64,000 bases of DNA from Gammaproteobacteria bacterium (lineage in GTDB: Bacteria > Pseudomonadota > Gammaproteobacteria > BMS3Bbin11), in the NCBI GenBank assembly GCA_013150915.1, contig JAADJE010000012.1, positions 27,820 through 91,819 of the forward strand. The letters run 5' to 3'. The translations under genes and the position numbers were made by a program. Below, piece by piece: positions 3,646-59,303 of this stretch. Below the pieces are notes generated by a model, which was not told the origin of the DNA, ran no database searches, and saw nothing but the letters and a program-made list of their open reading frames with translations. Positions within the stretch are counted from its first letter, which is position 1. Each line of letters opens with the position of its first letter.

Positions 3646-4851
3646 CTATATTTTCTTTGTCACAAATTCACGAATTCGTTCAGCTGCTTCCAGACATTCC
3701 TGCTGTTCGGCTACCAGAGCGATGCGTATCCTGTTTTTCCCAGGGTTGCCGTTAAGGGTATCGCGTGCCAGGTAGGTGCCCGGCAGGGTGACCACATTTT
3801 CGTTCAGAAATAACCGGCGGCTGAACTCTTCCTCGTTGATCGGCGTTTCCGGCCATAGATAAAAACCGGCAGCAGGCTGATTCAATTTTATAAAGGACCC
3901 CAGTATATCAATAACAGCGTTGAATTTATCACGATAGACGGCACGATTCAGAACTACGTGTTCGTCATCATCCCATGCTGCAACTGAAATAGCCTGGGTC
4001 AGCCGATTTGGGACGCAACCGTGATAGGTGCGGTATTTAAAATAGGGATCAATAATTTTGGGGTCTCCGGCGACAAAGCCTGAGCGCAGGCCAGGTAAAT
4101 TAGACCGTTTGGACAGACTGTGAAAAACAATACAACGCTCAAAGTTGTTGCGTCCCTGTTCTGCTGCGACCTGTAGTAGACCGACTGGGGGTGTGTTTTC
4201 GTCCCTGTAGAGTTCGCTATAACATTCGTCCGCTGCAACGATAAAGTCGTAGCGGTCAGCAAGTGACAACGCTTTGATATAGATTTCTGCCGGAATAACT
4301 GAGCCCACCGGGTTATCGGGCGAGCAGAGGATCAGCAGCTGGGTTTCTTGCCAGATATGCTCCGGTACGTTATCCAGTTGTGGTTGCCAGTCATTTTCTT
4401 CAATGCTGTTTAGGAAATAAGGTGTGGCCCCTGCCATGATAGCGGCCCCTTCATAGATCTGATAAAAGGGGTTGGGTATGACGACATTTGCCGGGCCGTG
4501 AGCGCGGTGATCAACGGTGGCCTGGATGAAGGAAAAAATGGCTTCTCGACTGCCGCTAACCGGCAGCACATGCTGAGCCGGATCGAGCTTTTCTTCGGCA
4601 ATATGAAATCTGCGACTGAGCCAACGACAGATCGATTCCCTCAGATTTTCCTCGCCACGGGTAGCCGGATAGCCGGAAAGGAGATCGCCACCTTTTGCCA
4701 GTAAGCTATGGATAAAAAGAGGGGGGGGATGTTTTGGTTCGCCCAGTGACAACGTGATCCGCTTATTTACGGCTGCCGGTTCAATGCCTGCCAGCAAACG
4801 ATCGAGCTTTTGAAAGGGGTATTCCTTCAGCTTATCCAGTCGTGAATTCAT
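3646..4851 (-). CDS. dapC: Succinyldiaminopimelate transaminase (class I PLP aminotransferase)
   Basis: 401 aa. Carries the SLSKRSNLPGLRSGF PLP-lysine motif of DapC-type aminotransferases. Sits between glnD and dapD as in Pseudomonas. Confidence 0.8.
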   Translation of the reverse strand: MNSRLDKLKEYPFQKLDRLLAGIEPAAVNKRITLSLGEPKHPPPLFIHSLLAKGGDLLSGYPATRGEENLRESICRWLSRRFHIAEEKLDPAQHVLPVSGSREAIFSFIQATVDHRAHGPANVVIPNPFYQIYEGAAIMAGATPYFLNSIEENDWQPQLDNVPEHIWQETQLLILCSPDNPVGSVIPAEIYIKALSLADRYDFIVAADECYSELYRDENTPPVGLLQVAAEQGRNNFERCIVFHSLSKRSNLPGLRSGFVAGDPKIIDPYFKYRTYHGCVPNRLTQAISVAAWDDDEHVVLNRAVYRDKFNAVIDILGSFIKLNQPAAGFYLWPETPINEEEFSRRLFLNENVVTLPGTYLARDTLNGNPGKNRIRIALVAEQQECLEAAERIREFVTKKI

Positions 4852-4897
4852 GGGGTCAGTATCGGGTTATTGGTCGCTATATAAAGTGATCAGGGGT

Positions 4898-7588
4898 CTA
4901 GGCGTCCTGGTTGGAATCCAGTCTATCGATTATATTTTGTCTGATACTGTCCTGCTGTTGGCTGTCAGTAATGGGTTTATTGCCGAGATCGCTAACAAAA
5001 AAGATATCCTCGATCCGTGCACCGTAAGTGGCTACTTTGGCATTATGCAGCTTGATATCACATTTTTCGAAAACTTCTGCAATCTGGTATAAAAGACCCG
5101 GTCTGTCCTGGGCGATGACCTCTAAAACGGTATACTGGCCTTGTCGTATTTCCAGGAAATTTACCTGTGTCGGAATCGGGAACTGCTTCAGCGCTCTGGA
5201 CAGCGTTGCTTTCAGTGGGTCACGACCTTTGCGAGGCATCAGTAACTGGTCTTTTAGTGCCTCCTCTATCTCTTTCTGCTCAATATCGGTGCAGACGGCA
5301 TTGTCATTTTGATCCAGTACGAGATAGTTGTGCAGGGCAAAGCCCATCTGTGTCGTATGCAAGCGTGCGTCAACGATATTCAGGTTCAGGCGATCAAAGC
5401 CCCCCGTGGTTCTTACCAGTAGATTTGCCAGATCCGGGGTAAATACCAGTACCTCGGTACAACCTGAATTTTTTGCATAACGAACGGCCACAACCGGCAA
5501 CTCAAGAACGCTGACATTGGCGAGTGTTTTTATGTGCCATTTTAGGGTATCGACTTCATAACGCAGAAAATAATCGCTATCGAATAAAGACCAGTAGCGC
5601 TGAAAGTTTTCGTCTGAAACGTGTGCTGGCACAAGGCTGCTGGAAAGTGCCTGCTGCAGGTTGACTAGGCGCTCTTCGTTGCGATCACTCTCAATGTCTG
5701 TGCGCCTCAAATATCTCGATGTTGCATGATAAAGTTGAAGTAATAGCTTGTTTTTCCAATCATTCCATACTTTCGGGCTGGTGCCCCGCATATCTGCCAT
5801 GGTCAGTAGGTAGAGATTATCCAGATGCTCCTGGTCGCCAACAGTACGCGAAAATTCAGCAATAACTTCCGGATCCGAAATATCCATTTTCTGTGCCGTC
5901 CAGGACATGATCAGATGCCTGTACACCAACCAGGCAACAAGCTTTGTATCGTATTCGCTGAGATCGTGTAGACGGCAGAACTGGATACTTATCCTTTCGC
6001 CTTTTTCCGAATGGTTACCTCCCCGTCCTTTAGCGATGTCGTGCAGCAGGGCTGCGAGATACAGGCGTTCGGGTTTGAACAGTCTGGCCAGTAATTTGCT
6101 GGCCAGTGGATGTTCATCGCGAAATTGATCGACACTCAGTCTGCGCAGGTTTCGTATAACAAAAAGGGTATGAACATCAATCGTGTAGATATGAAATAGA
6201 TCATGCTGCATCAGGCCTACGATACGACCAAAGGCCGGGAAATAGGCACCCAGTACGCCGTAGTCATTCATTTTTCGCATGATGTGCGTGAGGCCTGCGC
6301 CATTACGAAAGAATGTGATAAACAGGCTGCGGCAGGCTATGTCTCGTCGGAACTCAGGGGTGATCAGATTTAATGAGTTATGAATCAGACGAATGGTGTT
6401 TGCTCTAATGCCTTTCAGCTCAGGAAAATCTTGAAGGATGTAAAAGACCTCCAGTAGAGCAAAAGGCTGACGGTTAAAAACATCATTATCGACAACGTCC
6501 ACATAGCCATTGATTGCATTGAATCGGCGATTGATTTCTACTGAGGTATTATCCTTCTGCGCAAGGAAAACCTCTTCAAAATGCTGCAACAGGATGTCAT
6601 TCAATAAGCCAAGCTCTTTTACCGTTCGGTAATAGCGTTTCATCAGCTGTTCGACTGCCAGATTACCGTGTTTGTCTGAGTAGCCGAATTCAGTTGCCAG
6701 TTCGCGCTGGTACTCAAACAGTAGTCGATCTTCCCGATGTCCGGCTAGAAAGTGCAGGCCATTGCGTATGCGCCAGAGGAAATTGCGACATCGAATCAGT
6801 GTTTGATACTCGTTCCTGGTCAGGAATTCATGTTGCACCAACTCTTCCAGGGATGTCGCATTGAAGTAGCGCATCGTGGCCCAGGCAATCATATGTAAAT
6901 CTCGCAGACCACCCGGGCTTTCTTTGATATTTGGCTCAAGTTTGTATGCGGTTTCACCGAAACGGATGTGGCGCACCCGCTGTTCCTGCAGCTTGGCGTG
7001 AAAATATTGATCAGCAGGCCAAATTTGATCGGGTCCTATGGCGGCCTGCATTTGCTGTAGCAAGGCCATGGAGCCGAATAACAGGCGCGCTTCCATCAGA
7101 TTGGTGACGACTGTCAGATCGACGGCAGCTTCTTTGCATTCAGCGACCGTGCGTACACTGTGGCCGATATCCAGGCCGATATCCCATAAAATATACAAAA
7201 ACCGTTTGCTTGATTCGGTAAAGGTATTATCAATATTGTTGCTGGCTTTCTCATCCAGGAGAATCATCAGGTCGATATCCGAGGAGGGGTGCAATTCGTT
7301 TCGGCCATACCCTCCGACCGCAATCAGGCTACCGCAGTTGGCATTTGGTTCAGGGGTATGCACAAAATTCCAGATATTGACCAGCAACTGGTCGATGAAC
7401 CAGGTCCAGAGGCTGATGATATTGGTGCTGGAGGCGCCATCAGACTGAGCGTGGTGAAGAATCTCCCGGGTCTCCTGTAGGATACGTTTTATTGTTTTAT
7501 GCGGTTGCGGGTTTTCTCTGAGAATAGCAACAATTTTTGCGGCAGCAGGGAAGTCCCTGCGCGACAGACTTGCCCGCTTTTTCTTCAT
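4898..7588 (-). CDS. glnD: [Protein-PII] uridylyltransferase / uridylyl-removing enzyme
   Basis: 896 aa. Has the nucleotidyltransferase GGYGRNELHPSSDIDL motif, an HD domain (HDIAKGRGGNHSEKGE) and two C-terminal ACT-like regions. Confidence 0.92.
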   Translation of the reverse strand: MKKKRASLSRRDFPAAAKIVAILRENPQPHKTIKRILQETREILHHAQSDGASSTNIISLWTWFIDQLLVNIWNFVHTPEPNANCGSLIAVGGYGRNELHPSSDIDLMILLDEKASNNIDNTFTESSKRFLYILWDIGLDIGHSVRTVAECKEAAVDLTVVTNLMEARLLFGSMALLQQMQAAIGPDQIWPADQYFHAKLQEQRVRHIRFGETAYKLEPNIKESPGGLRDLHMIAWATMRYFNATSLEELVQHEFLTRNEYQTLIRCRNFLWRIRNGLHFLAGHREDRLLFEYQRELATEFGYSDKHGNLAVEQLMKRYYRTVKELGLLNDILLQHFEEVFLAQKDNTSVEINRRFNAINGYVDVVDNDVFNRQPFALLEVFYILQDFPELKGIRANTIRLIHNSLNLITPEFRRDIACRSLFITFFRNGAGLTHIMRKMNDYGVLGAYFPAFGRIVGLMQHDLFHIYTIDVHTLFVIRNLRRLSVDQFRDEHPLASKLLARLFKPERLYLAALLHDIAKGRGGNHSEKGERISIQFCRLHDLSEYDTKLVAWLVYRHLIMSWTAQKMDISDPEVIAEFSRTVGDQEHLDNLYLLTMADMRGTSPKVWNDWKNKLLLQLYHATSRYLRRTDIESDRNEERLVNLQQALSSSLVPAHVSDENFQRYWSLFDSDYFLRYEVDTLKWHIKTLANVSVLELPVVAVRYAKNSGCTEVLVFTPDLANLLVRTTGGFDRLNLNIVDARLHTTQMGFALHNYLVLDQNDNAVCTDIEQKEIEEALKDQLLMPRKGRDPLKATLSRALKQFPIPTQVNFLEIRQGQYTVLEVIAQDRPGLLYQIAEVFEKCDIKLHNAKVATYGARIEDIFFVSDLGNKPITDSQQQDSIRQNIIDRLDSNQDA

Positions 7589-8437: not shown

Positions 8438-8505
8438 CACTGCTGTCCCGTTAACCTGATCTTATTTTTCTGTCGTTGTTGTAGTGCTTGGGATGCAGGG
8501 AACCC
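8438..8505. repeat. Partial copy (one terminal inverted repeat plus ~50 bp) of MITE-like element family B; the complete copy is at 54655-54844
   Basis: GCACTGCTGTCCCGTTAACCTGATCTTATTTTCTGTCGTTGTTGTAGTGCTTGGGATGCAGGGAACCC is nearly identical to the reverse complement of 54771-54840. Confidence 0.8.
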
Positions 8506-8741
8506 ATTTATACCTGGAACTTTAGACTTGGAACTTGGAACTATGCCCCTTTTGTGCTATAACCGCGCCTCTTTTCAGGGGTTCTGAATTACGGACGGCC
8601 TGATTTCGAAATACGCTGTCATTTGATGACTTAACTAAAATGATCGTGGGAACACTAGCAGGGCCCGGGTGTTTGAGAGACTGTTTGTCTGTCAAACTGG
8701 CATTGCAACCCATGTGAATGTAACCCGAACGGAGATAGAAG

Positions 8742-38123: not shown

Positions 38124-38286
38124 GGGCACCTTTATTAATCCATGAATATTCATCTTGCATCCCAAATCGTCCATCTCTGCGTTAAGCATCTTCGCAATAG
38201 CCATGCTATTGCGTGCGATCCTTGTCTTGATATGAACAATTGTGGAATACAATCTGAGCTATCCAGAATTGATAGAGGTGCCCTTT
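38122..38286. repeat. MITE-like dispersed element family A, copy 1 (~165 bp, terminal inverted repeats AAGGGCACCT / AGGTGCCCTT), filling the whole sdhA-sdhB intergenic space
   Basis: Highly similar to 49889-50048 and partly to 41525-41705. The left terminal repeat overlaps the sdhA stop codon. The right terminal repeat ends 2 nt before the sdhB ATG. Confidence 0.8.
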
Positions 38287-49205: not shown

Positions 49206-49911
49206 TGAAAAGATACAGAGGCTTCAGAAGTCACTGGACTATAATTTCAATTCCAGGCCAGAGTTGTTAATACGTGCATTAACACATAGAAGCCACGGCT
49301 CGGATAACTACGAAAGACTGGAATTCCTTGGAGACAGTCTACTGGGTTTTATCATTGCGGATACGATTTGTGAAAGGTTTCCCGATGCAGATGAGGGGCA
49401 ATTGACCCGATTGCGTGCGAACCTGGTCAGACAGGAAACTCTGGCAGAACTTGGTAGAGAATTAGATCTGGGGAGGTATCTTATTCTCGGTCCGGGTGCA
49501 CTGAAAAGCGGTGATCAGGGGCGAGACTCCGTTCTTTCTGATGTCGTAGAGGCAATTATCGGTGTCATCTATCTCGATGGAGGAATGCTGCCCTGTCGAC
49601 AATTTGTCACCCGGATATTTGCCGACAGACTTGCTTTGTGTGAACCGCATAAAATCCTTAAAGACCCGAAGACCCGCCTGCAGGAGTTTTTACAGCAACA
49701 ATCACAGAAACTCCCCGAATACACCATTCTCGATATAAGCGGTCCTCCACACAAGCAGTCATTCAAAGTGCAGTGTCTGATAGCAGAAGGCAAGCAAGTA
49801 TTCTGTGGGCGAGGTGCTAGCCGTCGTAAGGCTGAGCAGGATTCTGCTGAAAAGGCCTTACGGGCCATTTCTAAACAATCAGGGCTTTCGGGCACCTCTG
49901 TTAATCCATGA
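49183..49911 (+). CDS. rnc: Ribonuclease III
   Basis: RNase III signature (ERLEFLGDS) and a C-terminal dsRBD. GTG start overlapping the previous gene. The last ~7 codons are contributed by the terminal repeat of MITE A copy 2. Confidence 0.9.
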   Translation: MSKSHLGNEKIQRLQKSLDYNFNSRPELLIRALTHRSHGSDNYERLEFLGDSLLGFIIADTICERFPDADEGQLTRLRANLVRQETLAELGRELDLGRYLILGPGALKSGDQGRDSVLSDVVEAIIGVIYLDGGMLPCRQFVTRIFADRLALCEPHKILKDPKTRLQEFLQQQSQKLPEYTILDISGPPHKQSFKVQCLIAEGKQVFCGRGASRRKAEQDSAEKALRAISKQSGLSGTSVNP

Positions 49912-50048
49912 ATATTCAACTTCCATCCCAAATCGTCTCTCTCTGCGTTAAGAATCTTCGCAATAGCTAGCTATTACGTACGATCCTTGCCTTGATATGT
50001 ACAATTTGGAATGCAATCTGACCTATCCAGAATTAATAGAGGTGCCCC
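49889..50048. repeat. MITE-like dispersed element family A, copy 2, occupying the rnc-era intergenic space and ending immediately before the era ATG
   Basis: ~85% identical to 38122-38286 over ~160 bp. Terminal repeats GGGCACCTCT ... AGAGGTGCCC. Confidence 0.8.
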
Positions 50049-51683: not shown

Positions 51684-51697
51684 GTCAAAATCATGGA

Positions 51698-51804
51698 GAC
51701 CAAAGACCAAAGACCAAAGACCAAAGACCAAAGACCAAAGACCAAAGACCAAAGACCAAAGACCAAAGACACCAAAGACCAAAGACCAAAGACCAAAGAC
51801 CAAA
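51698..51804. repeat. Heptanucleotide tandem repeat (GACCAAA)x15; the eleventh unit carries a 2-nt insertion (GACACCAAA)
   Basis: Direct reading of the sequence: ten perfect units, one 9-nt variant, then four perfect units, between recO and pdxJ. Confidence 0.95.
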
Positions 51805-51830
51805 GGCTAAATAACGTAAACCGTAAACCC

Positions 51831-52568
51831 ATGACTAGATTAAAACTCGGTGTAAATATCGATCACGTCGCCTCTATCCGTCAGGCAAGAGGAACCGCCT
51901 ATCCTGATCCTGTGCAGGCCGCTTTCATTGCTGAGCAGGCCGGAGCAGATAGTATTACCTTACATCTTCGTGAAGACCGCAGACATATTCAGGACAGGGA
52001 TCTGGCCATCATGCGGCAGACCATCCAGACACGTATGAATCTGGAGATGGCCGTTACCGAAGAGATGATTGGGCTCGCCATCAAAACGTTACCGGAAGAG
52101 GTTTGTCTGGTGCCAGAGAAACGCGAGGAGCTTACTACTGAAGGTGGACTGGATGTGCTAGGGAATTTGGCCAGAATAGCTACAGGGGTTAAACGTTTGC
52201 ATGATGCGGGTATCCTGGTTTCATTATTTATCGATCCTGATCCAGAACAGCTTGATGCCTCCATTAATGCTGGGGTAAAGGGGGTTGAATTACATACTGG
52301 GCATTTTGCAGATGCCGAGACCGATGAAGCGGCTGACCGAGAGTTTCAATCGATAGTGGAAGCCGTCGACTATGGGAAAAGTAGGGGGCTTAAAGTCAAT
52401 GCAGGCCATGGCCTGCATTACCACAATGTTGAGCGGATAGCGGCAATCAGGGGTATATCTGATCTAAATATTGGTCATGCTATTATCGCCCGGGCTGTTT
52501 TCACAGGCTTGTCGGCAGCTGTGCGTGAGATGAAGGCTCTGATGGACAAGGCCAGTATGATGGTCTAA
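51831..52568 (+). CDS. pdxJ: Pyridoxine 5'-phosphate synthase
   Basis: [27 protein letters not shown] is a canonical PdxJ N-terminus. An in-frame ATG at 51693 would add an N-terminal extension encoded by the heptamer repeat, which is considered unlikely. Confidence 0.9.
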
Positions 52569-52579
52569 ATGTGCCTGGT

Positions 52580-52864
52580 TTATTTCTTTGCCGGTGGCGG
52601 TTGAAAGCCTGCTGGCATTTGTCCCTCTTCACCTTCACCAAATAAAAAACCTTGCATGTGTTGTTCAATAATTTTCAGGGCCCGAGGATCAGCGGTACTG
52701 AGTTGCATTTCATTCATGATGATCGTCAGGCGATCCAGCCATTGACGCCAGCCTTCAGCTGAAATATTTTCATAGATTCGAATACCAAGCTCGCCTGGGT
52801 GGGGAACATGTTCCAGCCCGGGCGCTTCTTTCTTTAGTACCTGACAGTTAACCATTCTACTCAT
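52580..52864 (-). CDS. yggX: Fe(2+)-trafficking protein YggX
   Basis: 94 aa. Aligns along its length with E. coli YggX (MSRxxxCxxLxxEAxGxxxxxxPGELGxRIY...). Confidence 0.8.
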   Translation of the reverse strand: MSRMVNCQVLKKEAPGLEHVPHPGELGIRIYENISAEGWRQWLDRLTIIMNEMQLSTADPRALKIIEQHMQGFLFGEGEEGQMPAGFQPPPAKK

Positions 52865-52964: not shown

Positions 52965-54599
52965 TTATAGCTTGATACCCGGGATATTCTCAAGAGTTAC
53001 CTTATCGATTTGTTCAGGGTTCATGTATTCATCAGCGTATGCCTGAAAAATATTTTTATCGACAAATAGCTGAAATAGATCTGGATCGATATGATTGTCT
53101 TCACACATGAGGCCAAGGATACGAAGTGCATTGGACAGTGTTTTCCCTTTCTTATAGGGTCGGTCACAGGCTGTCAGTGCCTCAAAAATATCGGCTATTC
53201 CCATGACACGAGCCTGCACTGATATCTGATCTCGAGTCAGGCCTTTCGGGTAGCCTTTGCCATCCACACGTTCGTGATGTCCACCGGCAAATTCTGGAAC
53301 ATTACTGAGGTGTTTGGGAAAGGGTAGAGACTCCAGCATATTGATTGTGGTGACGATATGATGATTAATGATCTCTCTTTCTTCGGGAGTTAATGTTCCT
53401 TTTGCAATGGTCAGGTTATAAACTTCATTGTCGCTCAATAAGGGTCGTGTCTCAGATTGGTGTTTCCAGCTAGTGCGGCTGATTCCCCGTATTCTTTTTA
53501 TGTCCGCATCCGCCATGAACTCTCCACCGGTATTGTGTGCACGGACAAAGCTGAGGTCATCGTCAAGTTTAGTAATCATTGCCCCTAATTCCATCGTAAT
53601 ATTTTTATCCATTTCGGCCGTATTGTATGCATTTTCCATAAGGTGTTTTCGGATCAGTGTTATTTCCGCATCACGTTTTAGTAATTCAAAGCGTGTGCTT
53701 ATTTCGGTGATTCGATCATGGATTGTTTCAAGTTTCGTTCCCTTGTCGACGACATATTCCGGTGTGGTAATTTTACCGCAATCATGCAGCCAGGCGGCAA
53801 TCTCAAGTTCGTATCGTTCTTCGTCTGTCATATGAAAAGATTTAAATGGTCCTGTCTCGGACTCATGTGCTGCATCAGCCAGCATCATAGTGAGTACTGG
53901 AACACGTCGGCAATGGCCAGCGGTGTAGGGAGATTTATCATCGATGGCTGTCGCAACTAGCTGGATAATCGATTCCAGCAAGTTCTTTTGTTCGTCAATT
54001 AGTTGCTGGTTCGTCAGGGCAATTGCCGCTTGTGAGGCAAGTGACTCAACTAATTCCTGCGCAGTGCGCGAAAATTTAATTATTTCACCTGTCTTTTCTG
54101 ACAAGGCATTAATCAACTGCAGTGCTCCAATTACATCCCCGGTGTGGTTTTTCATCGGGATGGAGAGAATGGATTGAGGTCGATAGCCCAGTTTTTCGGC
54201 ATATTTACGCATTCCAGCAAAGTCAAAACCGTCGTGATGATAAACATCTTCAATATTGACGGTTTCTCCTGAATTTATACTGTACGAAATGATATTCTGG
54301 TGATTCTCTGATCCATTCGGATTCAACAAAGGAATAGCGGGTAGAGTAACCTCCTTCGTGCTGATGCCGCCTTCGTGGATCCCGAGTGAATCAGTGTGCA
54401 TTGTTTCCATTTTTATCATCCTGTTGCCTTTATCATCCTCAATAACTGAATACAGGCTGCCAGCATCAGCATTACTGAGTTCTTTTGCACCAATAAGGAT
54501 AGATTCTAGCAGGCGGGTAGTCTCTTTTTCTGCTGACAGAGAGATACCGATTTCAGTCAATTTTCTGATTCGTTCAGCAAGTTTTTCTTCACCTTCCAT
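52965..54599 (-). CDS. GAF-domain sensor fused to an HD-GYP c-di-GMP phosphodiesterase domain
   Basis: 544 aa. HD motif (AAWLHDCGKITTP) and GYP motif (HHERVDGKGYPKGL). The N-terminal ~200 aa are GAF-like. Confidence 0.8.
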   Translation of the reverse strand: MEGEEKLAERIRKLTEIGISLSAEKETTRLLESILIGAKELSNADAGSLYSVIEDDKGNRMIKMETMHTDSLGIHEGGISTKEVTLPAIPLLNPNGSENHQNIISYSINSGETVNIEDVYHHDGFDFAGMRKYAEKLGYRPQSILSIPMKNHTGDVIGALQLINALSEKTGEIIKFSRTAQELVESLASQAAIALTNQQLIDEQKNLLESIIQLVATAIDDKSPYTAGHCRRVPVLTMMLADAAHESETGPFKSFHMTDEERYELEIAAWLHDCGKITTPEYVVDKGTKLETIHDRITEISTRFELLKRDAEITLIRKHLMENAYNTAEMDKNITMELGAMITKLDDDLSFVRAHNTGGEFMADADIKRIRGISRTSWKHQSETRPLLSDNEVYNLTIAKGTLTPEEREIINHHIVTTINMLESLPFPKHLSNVPEFAGGHHERVDGKGYPKGLTRDQISVQARVMGIADIFEALTACDRPYKKGKTLSNALRILGLMCEDNHIDPDLFQLFVDKNIFQAYADEYMNPEQIDKVTLENIPGIKL

Positions 54600-54654
54600 C
54601 GAGATATCTCCATTAGATACAGGTTAGAAATGAGATTGTTCATATTCAAGTATA

Positions 54655-54844
54655 CTGAGACACTGCTGTCCCGTTAACGCCACATCGTCATGCCGGGCTT
54701 GACCCCCGGTATCCAGTAAGTCGTTGAAACCGCTGGATTCCGGCCTGCGCCGGAATGACAACCCCATTGGGTTCCCTGCATCCCAAGCACTACGACAACG
54801 ACAGCAAAATAAGATCAGGTTAACGGGACAGCCGTGACACTGAG
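54655..54844. repeat. Complete MITE-like element family B (~190 bp) with ~24-bp terminal inverted repeats (CTGAGACACTGCTGTCCCGTTAAC ... GTTAACGGGACAGCCGTGACACTGAG) and an internal palindrome
   Basis: Terminal inverted repeats read directly from the sequence. Internal perfect palindrome ATTCCGGCCTGCGCCGGAAT at 54737-54756. Partial copy at 8438-8505. Confidence 0.8.
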
Positions 54845-54984
54845 ATTATATCTATTCTCGCAGATATTAAGGGCCGCTCTATTAATTCATGAATAATAGC
54901 GGTGTTTTTTAGGGTGAAATTATAATTAATCGTCCCCATATCTCTGCTAATATTAGATTCTAAACACTGTACAGGAGTATAACT

Positions 54985-55377
54985 ATGGGTGAAGCGGCTT
55001 TTCAGACTGAAATTACGGGCGACATGATGTCAATTACAGATACTGCACTTGAAAAAATGGGCGAACTGCTTGAGCAGGTGGAAGAAGATGTTGCTGGCAT
55101 AAGAGTATTTATCCACGGAGGCGGCTGTAGCGGTCTTTCCTATGGTATGACGTATGCCGAGGAAAAACTTGAATCTGATAGCCAGCTTGGTAACGATGAC
55201 TGCAATATACTTGTTGATCCTATCGCACTTGGCTACCTGAAGGGTTGTGAAATCGACTTTCGTGAGGGGCCAACAGGCGCCAGTTTTGTTTTTAATAATG
55301 TGTTCGAGTCAGTGGGTGGTTCTGGTGCCTGTGGTGGTGGCGGTGGTGGTTGCGGTGCCGGCGGTTGTGGCGGCTAA
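54985..55377 (+). CDS. HesB/IscA-fold (A-type carrier-like) protein with an atypical Gly/Cys-rich C-terminal tail
   Basis: IRVFIHGGGCSGLSYG and ILVDPIALGYLKGCEIDF match the IscA/HesB core. The C-terminus is ...FNNVFESVGGSGACGGGGGGCGAGGCGG instead of the usual CGCG-x-SF ending. Confidence 0.6.
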   Translation: MGEAAFQTEITGDMMSITDTALEKMGELLEQVEEDVAGIRVFIHGGGCSGLSYGMTYAEEKLESDSQLGNDDCNILVDPIALGYLKGCEIDFREGPTGASFVFNNVFESVGGSGACGGGGGGCGAGGCGG

Positions 55378-56666
55378 ATCAAGTTAACAAACGACCCTTT
55401 AACACGAACAGGCACAGCGTATTACTTATATCTCCGCCTGAAAGCTATCGTATTCAGCCCTATGTCAGGGCCGCCCTTTCACTCGACCTGGAGATTAATA
55501 TTGCTTCCGAGGGTGAATGGGCTATTTCTTCGCCACATTCGGCAGGTATTGATGTTCCCCTCCAGGATCATCAGTCCGCGCTTCCCATCCTGTTAGAGTT
55601 GTTCAAACAGCGGCAATACGATGCGGTTATTGGAACCGATGACAGTACACTCGAGCTTGCCGCTAAGCTCGCTGAAAAAACCGGTCTGCAGCAGAACCCC
55701 CCCACGGCTGTTCGACTGGCCAGACGTAAAGATTTATCACGACTTTGTCTGCATCAGGCAGGTATACGGGTGCCAGCATTTTTGGTCGTGGAGGCAAGTG
55801 AGCAACAATTGTTTGACGAACCGTATTTCGGTTTTCCCTGTGTCATCAAGCCCCTGGCATTATCGGCCAGCAGGGGGGTGATACGCGCCAATACGTGCGA
55901 GAGTCTTAATCGAGGAGTGAAGCGAAGTCTTAGAATTATTTCAGAACAGACTGATTTATATGAAAAAAACCATCTTCTTCTGGAGCAGTTTATTGATGGA
56001 AGGGAGTTTGCTATCGAGGGGATATTGTCTGACAGGCAGCTCGATATACTCGCTATCTTTGATAAACCTGATCCGATGGAGGGGCCCTATTTTGAAGAGA
56101 CCTATTACATTTCTCCCGCAAGGATTTCGCCGAATGAAAGGCAAATTCTAATAGAAACAGTACAAAATGCCTGTCGGGCATTTGGTCTGGTTACCGGGCC
56201 AGTCCATGCTGAATGCCGCCTTAATAAAGAGGGTGCATGGCTGATAGAGATGGCAGCAAGGACGATCGGTGGTCTTTGTAGTCGTTTGCTGACTTTTGGT
56301 ACGGGATATTCACTTGAACAGCTGGTGCTTGCGAATGCTATTGGTCTGGAATTGCCACAGGAACTTAAGGACGGTGCGGCAGGTGTTCTTATGCTACCGA
56401 CAGAAACTGCCGGTATCCTGCGCCGTGTTGAGGGCGTTATGAGGGCTGAAAAGGTGCCATACATTGACGATATTGAGATTAGTCTACGTGAAGGATACCG
56501 CGTATCACCCTTGCCCGAAGGGACGAGTTATCTGGGCTTTGTTTTTTCTACAGCGCCAGATTCAGACAAAGTTGAACAGGCATTGAGGGATGCCTATGCA
56601 CTACTGAACCCTGTGATTGCACCCTACTGGCCAGTTTCTATGAGCAAGAAAGAGGCCAGCGACTAA
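55350..56666 (+). CDS. ATP-grasp family ligase (COG3919-like). TTG start overlaps the upstream HesB-like gene by 13-28 nt.
   Basis: FPCVIKPLALSASRGV (ATP-binding Lys), LLEQFIDGREFAIEG and IEMAARTIGG motifs of the ATP-grasp fold. No ATG in frame, so TTG at 55350 or 55365 is the candidate start. Confidence 0.7.
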   Translation: MRCRRLWRLNQVNKRPFNTNRHSVLLISPPESYRIQPYVRAALSLDLEINIASEGEWAISSPHSAGIDVPLQDHQSALPILLELFKQRQYDAVIGTDDSTLELAAKLAEKTGLQQNPPTAVRLARRKDLSRLCLHQAGIRVPAFLVVEASEQQLFDEPYFGFPCVIKPLALSASRGVIRANTCESLNRGVKRSLRIISEQTDLYEKNHLLLEQFIDGREFAIEGILSDRQLDILAIFDKPDPMEGPYFEETYYISPARISPNERQILIETVQNACRAFGLVTGPVHAECRLNKEGAWLIEMAARTIGGLCSRLLTFGTGYSLEQLVLANAIGLELPQELKDGAAGVLMLPTETAGILRRVEGVMRAEKVPYIDDIEISLREGYRVSPLPEGTSYLGFVFSTAPDSDKVEQALRDAYALLNPVIAPYWPVSMSKKEASD

Positions 56667-56703
56667 CTAAGGAGCTGACCGAATAAAGTTATTGCTGCTG
56701 CCG

Positions 56704-57474
56704 TTAGGGTAATTTTACGATTGCGTTAATGCCAAAGTTATAGAGTTGAGCCTTGCCCTGATTGCCTTCGTATTCAAACTCCAGATCGAAATTCTTAGTA
56801 ATGTGTACACCTAGACCCAGGCCATAACCGATCTGTGTTTTATTTTCCTGAACGATTAATGCTTCCCCTACTGCTGGGCCCACATTTTTTTGCCCGACGA
56901 CGACTTGTGTAGTAGCTCCCGTTGGCAAGCCGGTATCGGGATCAACGACAGGTAGCCCTGTTGTTGGGTCCGTTACGGGGACTTCATCAATAATATCTAC
57001 TGTTTGTTGAACAACAGCGGTGGTTCTTATCTTGTAACGGGAAGCGACGATGCCGATCTTGCCCTTGGCATATAGCCGACCTGCGGTTCGGTATGCGAGA
57101 TAACCACTGTATAGGGGGTTCTCCCATTCGCCACCGGCAGGATAGATGCTTGGGTTGCTGGAGGGGACCCCCTTGATATCCCCTTTATTTGTTGTGGGCA
57201 GATACTCAAATTCAAATGCTGCTTTACCTTTCCAGACTGGACGAGCGAATTCATAGCCGAGTATCAGACCAGCGTTAGTCGATTCTTGTTCACCAATGCC
57301 GTCATCACTGTTGTACATAGAAGCGTATTTACCACCGATCAACCATCGACCGCTCGCTTCTTCACCAAAGAATGGTCCATCACCGGGTTGATCAAATTCT
57401 GTTGCTGAAGCAGATAGAGTGACCAGTATTGCGGGCAATACCAGTAATTGAGCAAAGGTTTTTTTAGTTTCCAT
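56704..57474 (-). CDS. Putative outer-membrane beta-barrel protein
   Basis: Signal peptide METKKTFAQLLVLPAILVTLSASA (ATG at 57474). Alternating amphipathic beta-strand pattern. C-terminal aromatic-rich ...LYNFGINAIVKL. AT-rich upstream region. Confidence 0.5.
   Translation of the reverse strand: METKKTFAQLLVLPAILVTLSASATEFDQPGDGPFFGEEASGRWLIGGKYASMYNSDDGIGEQESTNAGLILGYEFARPVWKGKAAFEFEYLPTTNKGDIKGVPSSNPSIYPAGGEWENPLYSGYLAYRTAGRLYAKGKIGIVASRYKIRTTAVVQQTVDIIDEVPVTDPTTGLPVVDPDTGLPTGATTQVVVGQKNVGPAVGEALIVQENKTQIGYGLGLGVHITKNFDLEFEYEGNQGKAQLYNFGINAIVKLP

Positions 57475-59227: not shown

Positions 59228-59303
<76 letters not shown>

Follow-up and report, generated by a model that had tools for sequence, protein, structure and literature searches.

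A glycine/cysteine-tailed, ErpA-like iron–sulfur carrier subfamily encoded with an L-amino-acid-ligase-type ATP-grasp enzyme and YggX in Gammaproteobacteria

Overview

The window analyzed here is a 64,000-nucleotide (nt) stretch of contig JAADJE010000012.1 (positions 27,820 to 91,819, forward strand) of GenBank assembly GCA_013150915.1, from a Gammaproteobacteria bacterium of the GTDB lineage BMS3Bbin11. It carries a gene for an ErpA-like variant of the A-type iron–sulfur (Fe-S) carriers that ends in a glycine- and cysteine-rich tail and, directly downstream, a gene for an ATP-grasp enzyme of the L-amino-acid-ligase (LAL) type (Table 1). Together with yggX these two genes form a module that recurs in many Gammaproteobacteria and that appears to be undescribed. 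What is new is a subfamily of A-type carriers and an uncharacterized LAL orthogroup, joined in one module; both proteins are of known kinds. A real functional link between the module genes is probable. No paper describing the carrier/ligase pair was found, and the full-text literature on ATP-grasp enzymes with A-type carriers or YggX gave nothing relevant. This agrees with the preliminary description of the sequence, in which the arrangement was not recognized as a known one.

The A-type carrier

The carrier sequence matches Pfam Fe-S_biosyn PF01521 at 41.8 bits (cutoff 26.3, E = 1.4e-10) and NCBIfam TIGR00049 (iron-sulfur cluster assembly accessory protein) at 78.4 bits (cutoff 58.8). The PF01521 search had been proposed in the preliminary description, and both matches uphold the A-type core claimed there, as do the motifs GGGCSG, which holds the first ligand Cys (C48), and LKGCEIDF. 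The top-scoring equivalog model is that of ErpA (NF010147), with a score of 83.3 bits that lies below the 117-bit cutoff. Among solved structures the nearest is H. influenzae HI1723 (2APN, E = 1.6e-16), followed by Aquifex AQ_1857, E. coli IscA and SufA. The AlphaFold2 (AF2) model is confident in the core, with a predicted local distance difference test score (pLDDT) of ~83. The reading frame is real, because homologues down to ~41% identity keep FVFNNVF..GGSGxC. The product is very probably an A-type Fe-S carrier.

The glycine/cysteine tail

Residues 110–130 of the carrier read VGGSGACGGGGGGCGAGGCGG. As had been pointed out from the sequence, the canonical C-terminal CGCG-x-SF, present in HI1723 and AQ_1857, is missing. 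In the aligned region canonical carriers show NPNA..(S/T)CGCGSSF and the window carrier shows NNVFESVGGSGACGGGGGGCGAGGCGG. The tail of the window protein is composed solely of G, C, A, S and V. The AF2 pLDDT is <50 across residues 110–130, and the tail is therefore predicted to be flexible.

A search of 5.8 billion proteins with the carrier gave 2624 matches. The 120 best were inspected and every one of these is a PF01521 protein of 91–140 aa. The sequence FVFNNVF-x2-(V/T)GGSG-x-C-G-G-C-G-G, followed by a variable Gly/Ala/Ser stretch, is common to representatives down to ~49% identity. Positions F101, F103, N104, V106, F107, G111, G112, G114 and C116 are invariant in 24 diverse homologues. GGSGxC is invariant across the subfamily and the residues that follow it are variable. 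The Gly/Cys tail is a trait of this subfamily and is not peculiar to the window genome.

For locus comparison one genome per GTDB species was scanned; this gave 506 relatives, of which the best 80 were kept. The tails of these 80 genomes plus that of the window show a CxxC spacing of the first two Cys in 76/80. In the window and in two close relatives (loci L001 and L002) the second Cys comes after six residues, C-G6-C. Of 68 ligase-linked tails, 45 have a third Cys 1–2 residues before the C-terminus, against none of 11 unlinked ones (Fisher p = 3e-5, uncorrected for phylogeny). The commonest ending is GGGC-A, and 23 linked carriers have short two-Cys tails. The last residue of the linked tails is Ala in 32, Gly in 21 and one of ten other residues in the rest, none of them acidic, so that 53/68 finish in a small residue. 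One clade that keeps the ligase has tails both with and without the GCA ending. Most residues of the subfamily tails are G, C, A, S or T; others are occasional, and the Asp/Glu and Lys partners of graspetides are absent.

Tails vary even among relatives with core identities of at least 81% to the window protein, examples being CGGCGGACG, CG4CGAGGCGG, CG6CGAGGCGG, CG8CGAGGCGG and CGASASGCGAGGCGSGGCGS. The tail-coding DNA is an imperfect tandem repeat. The glycine run therefore drifts by slippage, with no constraint on the exact spacing. Gly/Cys-rich extensions are also found without a ligase neighbor, e.g. in L029 and in L079, a Chloroflexota carrier that has the canonical CGCG. These fit a metal-binding arm rather than an enzyme substrate.

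The two-Cys tails of loci L036 and L038 end in GGG-TGA-Ala-stop and ARA-TGA-Thr-stop, respectively, and resemble the common GGG-Cys-Ala-stop. Selenocysteine at the third-Cys position was considered and rejected, since a stop two codons later is found only in these two loci, at about chance frequency; a SECIS element was not searched for.

The carrier, ligase and yggX genes as a module

A survey of gene neighborhoods, which the preliminary description had recommended, gave a positive result. A ligase ortholog (37–81% identity) is situated directly downstream of the carrier on the same strand in 67 of the 80 carrier-variant genomes. The carrier stop precedes the first conserved strand of the ligase by 16–174 nt (median 67); thus the gap between the two genes is small or negative everywhere, although the overlap itself is not a constant feature. 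Starting from the ligase, 7 orthologs were looked up, and 6 of them are preceded by yggX and the carrier. Of the 80 loci, 65 have yggX (PF04362) no more than 6 kb from the carrier, and in 64 of these it is encoded on the opposite strand. It lies just upstream of the carrier in 37 loci, the window counted, and just downstream of the ligase in 28. Clustering of open reading frames over the 80 loci shows that, apart from the module, no gene is common to more than 19 loci. The flanking genes vary by lineage (pdxJ/acpS, ALAD/RsmJ, NUDIX, P-II, rib genes), and the yggX-carrier-ligase module therefore is a unit. Proteobacterial ATC-I genes are reported to have no conserved context (Vinella et al., PMC2682760), and the carrier subfamily described here, with yggX and the ligase beside it, is an exception.

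The exception among the reverse look-ups is L084, with no carrier within 6 kb of the ligase. A PilZ gene (L084 5476-5844) is found in place of the yggX and carrier genes of L088 (2051-2871), between identical flanks (ALAD-RsmJ ... RNA-methyltransferase). Twelve loci have the carrier but no ligase, and yggX is retained in 7 of these. In L089 the module is followed by a convergent suf-type operon (4299-7284) that encodes SufBD, an Aminotran_5 cysteine desulfurase (SufS), NifU_N, FeS_assembly_P and a Rieske protein. In the window, a gene for a GAF and HD-GYP-type protein parts yggX from the carrier. Of the 80 loci only L002 has a homologue there, and this gene is a local insertion outside of the conserved module.

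The hosts are Gammaproteobacteria that include Arenicellales, Ectothiorhodospiraceae, Thioalkalispiraceae, Acidiferrobacterales and Chromatiales, as well as Sulfuriflexus, Cycloclasticus, Thioalkalivibrio sp. HK1 and the Olavius Gamma-3 symbiont. The range is rich in marine and sulfur-oxidizing lineages.

Mirror-tree correlations are r = 0.68 for carrier and ligase and 0.58 and 0.70 for the yggX controls. The carrier-ligase value is no higher than the controls, and the comparison is thus uninformative. Upstream of the carrier, IscR type 1, IscR type 2, Fur and OxyR-half sites do not rise above shuffled controls in 81 loci, and an enriched upstream k-mer (ATTCTAAC...) gave no motif common across lineages. 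No carrier-ligase fusion is present among the 240 homologues listed.

A radical SAM enzyme is encoded directly after the ligase on the same strand in 19 of the 80 loci, e.g. L081 (9308-10393, 18-nt gap) and L010 (7840-8934). It scores 222.9 bits with the AmmeMemoRadiSam-system model TIGR04337 (cutoff 220); no AMMECR1 or Memo gene is found nearby, and the window has no such radical SAM enzyme. This enzyme may receive clusters from the carrier as a client, or it may be an extra module member in one clade.

The ligase

The enzyme encoded downstream had been called an ATP-grasp ligase, and this holds: it matches ATP-grasp_4 PF13535 at 100.5 bits (cutoff 27, E = 9e-29) and LAL_C2 PF18603 at 50 bits (cutoff 29.4, E = 3.5e-13). 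The sequence match to BL00235 (3VOT) has E = 3.8e-40 over ligase residues 68–410, with BacD next. The AF2 model has a pLDDT of 86 and a predicted TM score (pTM) of 0.85. When the model is used with Foldseek, hits 1–4 are 3VOT, BacD (3VMM) and RizA (4WD3), with E = 9e-35 and TM 0.76–0.80 for 3VOT; the identity to BL00235 in the structural alignment is 26%. Scores fall far under the equivalog cutoffs for BacD (37 vs 850 bits) and DdaF (43 vs 840 bits). The ligase belongs to the LAL family by both sequence and fold.

A likeness to RimK and to graspetide and microviridin ligases had also been suggested, and this fails. The RimK-family model TIGR00768 gives 25.6 bits against a cutoff of 143.4, and the LysX model TIGR02144 gives 19.9 against 275.6. 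The fold is LAL-type, the window tail has no Asp, Glu, Lys or Thr, and the last tail residue is unconserved.

Residue conservation was scored over 52 diverse orthologs. The catalytic set K167, E212/E219, H286, E288, E300 and R304 is invariant, and R304 aligns with the catalytic Arg of BacD, R328. The loop past this Arg reads G307-G308-L-C310, with C310 invariant in 52/52. In BacD, the positions of G308 and C310 are occupied by W332 and M334, and W332 limits the size of the acyl substrate (PMC6920838). This post-Arg loop lines the pocket for the acyl substrate in LALs, and in LdmS the loop (N307/G308/S309) is where the substrate Asp binds (PMC9486568). Of the other Cys, C275 is kept in 90% and C289 in 46% of the orthologs; C310 and C275 are both absent from BL00235 and BacD.

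Two further invariant segments are found. D97-D98-S99, of which D97-D98 is invariant, aligns with F83-E84-P85 of BL00235, where P85 controls the second substrate (PMC6920838), and D98 is aligned with Glu109 of BacD. S32-Y33-R34 is invariant in the N-domain. R34 may parallel Arg47 of LdmS, which binds the carboxylate of the incoming amino acid (PMC9486568). These residues point to an enzyme that is active, that has a spacious acyl pocket lined with Cys, and that uses an amino acid as the nucleophile.

Start codon of the ligase

Upstream of the first beta strand (SVLLISPP) the only in-frame ATG, GTG or TTG codons are TTG 55350 and TTG 55365. Both are situated within the tail codons of the carrier, so that the ligase overlaps the carrier by 28 or 13 nt. 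TTG 55365, with the 13-nt overlap, corresponds to the annotated start of the 84%-identical NCBI protein P0124 (MWRL...) and is the more likely start. Residues 1–18 of the long form are disordered in the AF2 model. In L001 and L002, which are closely related, a GTG 42–51 nt past the carrier stop serves as the start codon of the ligase. The window has lost this GTG and has a 16-nt deletion there, and therefore only the TTG starts are left. The overlap is local to the window clade and is not a family feature. In the window the ligase does start inside the tail codons, but any translational coupling by overlap, as proposed in the preliminary description, would be local to this clade. In a scan of positions 54500-56900 for promoters and terminators, counts equal the shuffle expectation.

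Local setting in the window

The genes that flank the carrier/ligase pair in the window (pdxJ, yggX, an outer membrane protein gene, orf142 and orf317) are syntenic in L083, L001 and L002. The segment had been described as variable, next to a tRNA gene and to degraded miniature inverted-repeat transposable elements (MITEs). Since the flanks recur in relatives such as L083, the locus is not a variable segment. A tRNA-Asn gene does lie nearby. The window does contain short MITE-like repeats, including one immediately before the carrier gene; the pair of ~160-nt elements is located away from the carrier/ligase pair.

The repeat upstream of the carrier is 69 nt long and intergenic. Its partner lies 46 kb off in inverted orientation, and the two arms are 96% complementary. 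A palindromic sequence, TTCCGGCCTGCGCCGGAATGAC, is adjacent to it and is single-copy in the window. The ~160-nt elements have GGGCACC...GGTGCCC ends and are 91–93% identical; one copy lies between sdhA and sdhB-like open reading frames and the other between rnc and era. The longest pdxJ open reading frame contains a heptanucleotide microsatellite, AGACCAA, of ~15 copies with 96% matches that translates as KTKDQRP repeats. Conserved PdxJ sequence begins only past the microsatellite, and the repeat is thus probably part of a 5′ untranslated region or a phase-variable leader.

Table 1. Positions of the module genes and neighboring features in the window
Feature	Position	Strand	Matches and remarks
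ErpA-like A-type Fe-S carrier variant, 130 aa	54985..55377	+	PF01521, TIGR00049
Flexible Gly/Cys tail codons, residues 110–130, VGGSGACGGGGGGCGAGGCGG	55312..55374	+	Cys116, Cys123, Cys128
L-amino-acid-ligase-type ATP-grasp enzyme, 438 aa (long form)	55350..56666	+	ATP-grasp_4, LAL_C2
yggX, Fe2+-trafficking protein	52580..52864	-	PF04362, E = 8e-30
GAF + HD-GYP-type (HD_5) signaling protein	52965..54599	-	Pfam GAF, HD, HD_5
orf142, 142 aa	57668-58096	-	no Pfam/NCBIfam match; 61% identity in L083, same arrangement
orf317, 317 aa	58211-59164	+	no Pfam/NCBIfam match; 39% identity in L083; divergent from orf142
tRNA-Asn	59228..59303
Longest pdxJ open reading frame	51693..52568
AGACCAA microsatellite	51697-51805
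69-nt repeat, arm upstream of the carrier	54768-54836
69-nt repeat, inverted arm	8438-8506
Palindrome	54738-54759
MITE-like element, ~160 nt, sdhA/sdhB-like copy	38124-38283
MITE-like element, ~160 nt, rnc/era copy	49890-50047

Proposed function of the module

The module would be an iron and Fe-S trafficking or repair unit that consists of YggX, an arm-bearing ErpA-like carrier and a LAL-type ligase. In the carrier, the two C-terminal ligand Cys would have been relocated onto a longer, glycine-rich, disordered arm on which CxxC replaces CxC and a third Cys is often added, and the glycine run would have been expanded by repeat slippage in the window clade. Carrier and ligase are presumably co-transcribed, with yggX divergent or convergent. 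As is typical of the LAL family, the ligase would activate a carboxylate as an acyl-phosphate and link it to a free amino acid via the latter's amino group. The small peptide-like product would be used with the carrier, e.g. as an auxiliary thiol or amine ligand. Glutathione, which serves the clusters of glutaredoxin and BolA, offers a parallel for such a role.

The proposal as a whole, with the protein as a working A-type, ErpA-like carrier of a distinct and widespread gammaproteobacterial subfamily whose arm would bind the cluster, stands slightly short of even odds. A free small-peptide product of the ligase that acts with the carrier has similar odds, and the nature and role of that product would follow from family behavior. 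A free product is preferred because of this behavior, the unconserved tail ends, the Gly/Cys tails without a ligase (L029, L079) and the ligase without a carrier (L084).

Several points weigh against this proposal. The motif that defines A-type carriers, Cys-Xn-Cys-X-Cys (PMC7144353), is not strictly kept by the subfamily, and cluster binding is therefore only inferred. The auxiliary-ligand role is conjecture. Over the 80 loci the module has no other conserved companion with a role in biosynthesis, transport or regulation that would indicate a small-molecule product, and IscR or Fur sites were not detected upstream of the carrier gene. The occurrence of the distal third Cys only where a ligase is present hints that ligase and tail are connected.

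Comparison with known systems

ErpA and other ATC-I proteins (E. coli ErpA, HI1723) share with the window carrier the PF01521 fold, the Cys of GGGCSG, a beta-sandwich core and a flexible, Cys-bearing C-tail. They end in NPNA-x3-CGCG-x-SF, whereas the window subfamily has FVFNNVF-x2-(V/T)GGSG-x-C-x2-C and a Gly-rich extension, often with a third Cys.

The ligase resembles BL00235, BacD/YwfE and RizA in the three-domain ATP-grasp and LAL_C2 architecture, the catalytic Arg and the Mg ligands, but has its own invariants S32-Y33-R34, D97-D98 and C310. The known enzymes sit in an antibiotic-cluster setting and the ligase in an Fe-S/iron gene module.

LdmS, the L-Asp-L-Met ligase of S. aureus, is a stand-alone LAL of sulfur-related primary metabolism that was identified from its genomic neighborhood; what its product does in the cell is unclear (PMC9486568). 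It differs in its partner gene (hmrA) and in host phylum, and in the search of PDB it gave no sequence match to the ligase at E ≤ 0.001. LdmS provides an earlier case of a stand-alone LAL linked to the metabolism of sulfur amino acids.

DsrC and TusE have a flexible C-terminal swinging arm with a penultimate reactive Cys. The commonest carrier ending, GGGC-A, recalls this arm, and the module hosts are rich in sulfur oxidizers. The folds are unrelated, and persulfide chemistry is not indicated here.

Alternative explanations

The ligase may instead act on the carrier itself. It would activate the C-terminal alpha-carboxylate near the terminal Cys and add an amino acid, in the manner of RimK, or another amine, which would tune or cap the cluster-binding arm. 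The linkage of the two genes is tight across orders, the distal third Cys is confined to ligase-linked carriers, and most linked tails end in Ala or Gly. In the acyl loop Gly-Gly takes the place of the Trp332 that limits substrate size in BacD, and this suggests space for a large acyl donor next to the invariant Cys310. A tail as disordered as that of the model could reach an active site. But the last residues of the tails (A, G, F, H, S, Y, V, Q, M, N) are unconserved, the 23 linked two-Cys tails lack the distal Cys, and the GCA ending comes and goes within one clade that retains the ligase. The length of the Gly run drifts by slippage. A ligase ortholog occurs without a carrier within 6 kb, 12 carriers occur without a ligase, and fusion proteins are absent from the homologues listed. 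The resemblance to the RimK/S6 and LysX/LysW pairs is one of concept only, that of an ATP-grasp enzyme and a small protein with a flexible C-tail. The ATP-grasp family differs, as the failure of both models shows, and the carrier tail ends in variable small residues where the substrates of RimK and LysX carry conserved acidic C-termini. To our knowledge no LAL-family enzyme acts on a protein C-terminus. We consider modification of the tail unlikely.

Alternatively, the ligase could be independent in function and be kept beside yggX and the carrier by shared transcription or inheritance only. The distance matrices of the three genes correlate alike (r 0.58–0.70), which is consistent with vertical co-inheritance, and each of the two genes is found without the other, the ligase in L084 and the carrier in 12 loci. 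Against this, carrier and ligase are adjacent on the same strand with a near-zero gap, and the adjacency survives at 37–50% protein identity with reshuffled flanks. Comparative genomics shows that persistent adjacency usually marks functional coupling at the operon level. The absence of any functional link is thus rather improbable.

It is very improbable that the ligase is a client of the carrier, needing a metal or Fe-S center that the carrier supplies. Its active-site Cys are family-specific, with C310 invariant and C275 at 90%, both absent from BL00235 and BacD; but a single invariant Cys, with C289 at only 46%, leaves too few cluster ligands. We know of no ATP-grasp enzyme with an Fe-S cluster. 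The Fe-S client hypothesis was rejected on the single invariant Cys among the 52 orthologs.

The ribosomally synthesized and post-translationally modified peptide (RiPP) or microcin-B17-like system of the preliminary description, in which the HesB fold is a leader or scaffold and the Gly/Cys tail a core peptide that the ATP-grasp enzyme modifies and that is perhaps then released, has a conserved scaffold with a hypervariable Cys/Gly C-terminus and a conserved ATP-grasp neighbor in its favor, but can practically be dismissed because the neighborhoods examined contain no protease, ABC/PCAT exporter, YcaO/cyclodehydratase or McbBCD-type gene, dehydrogenase or immunity gene, the tail has no Asp/Glu, Lys, Thr or Ser pattern for graspetide cross-links, the enzyme is LAL-type and not MdnB/C-type, and the gene occurs as one copy in housekeeping surroundings, beside yggX and, in one locus, a suf operon. 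The scaffold moreover retains ligand Cys48 and the carrier-family signature, and the tail Cys occupy the place of the carrier's own cluster-ligand Cys.

Significance

A-type carriers serve in the last and poorly understood step of Fe-S protein maturation. In a large subfamily of them, found in marine, symbiotic and sulfur-oxidizing Gammaproteobacteria, CxC is replaced by CxxC on a glycine-rich arm, and this subfamily is tied to two partners, YggX and an ATP-consuming LAL-type ligase. The linkage of an ATP-grasp enzyme, a carrier and YggX would be unexpected to a specialist. If the tail were modified after all, the carrier would be the first of the A-type to be tailored by an enzyme, the ligase would be the first of the LAL family to act on a protein, and Fe-S trafficking would gain an ATP-dependent step. 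Even if the ligase is unrelated, the carriers represent a new subfamily that is now annotated only generically ('iron-sulfur cluster assembly accessory protein'). The module offers a handle on whether YggX and A-type carriers cooperate, on the role of stand-alone L-amino acid ligases in primary metabolism, and on whether Fe-S carriers are enzymatically tailored or need a dedicated small-molecule partner.

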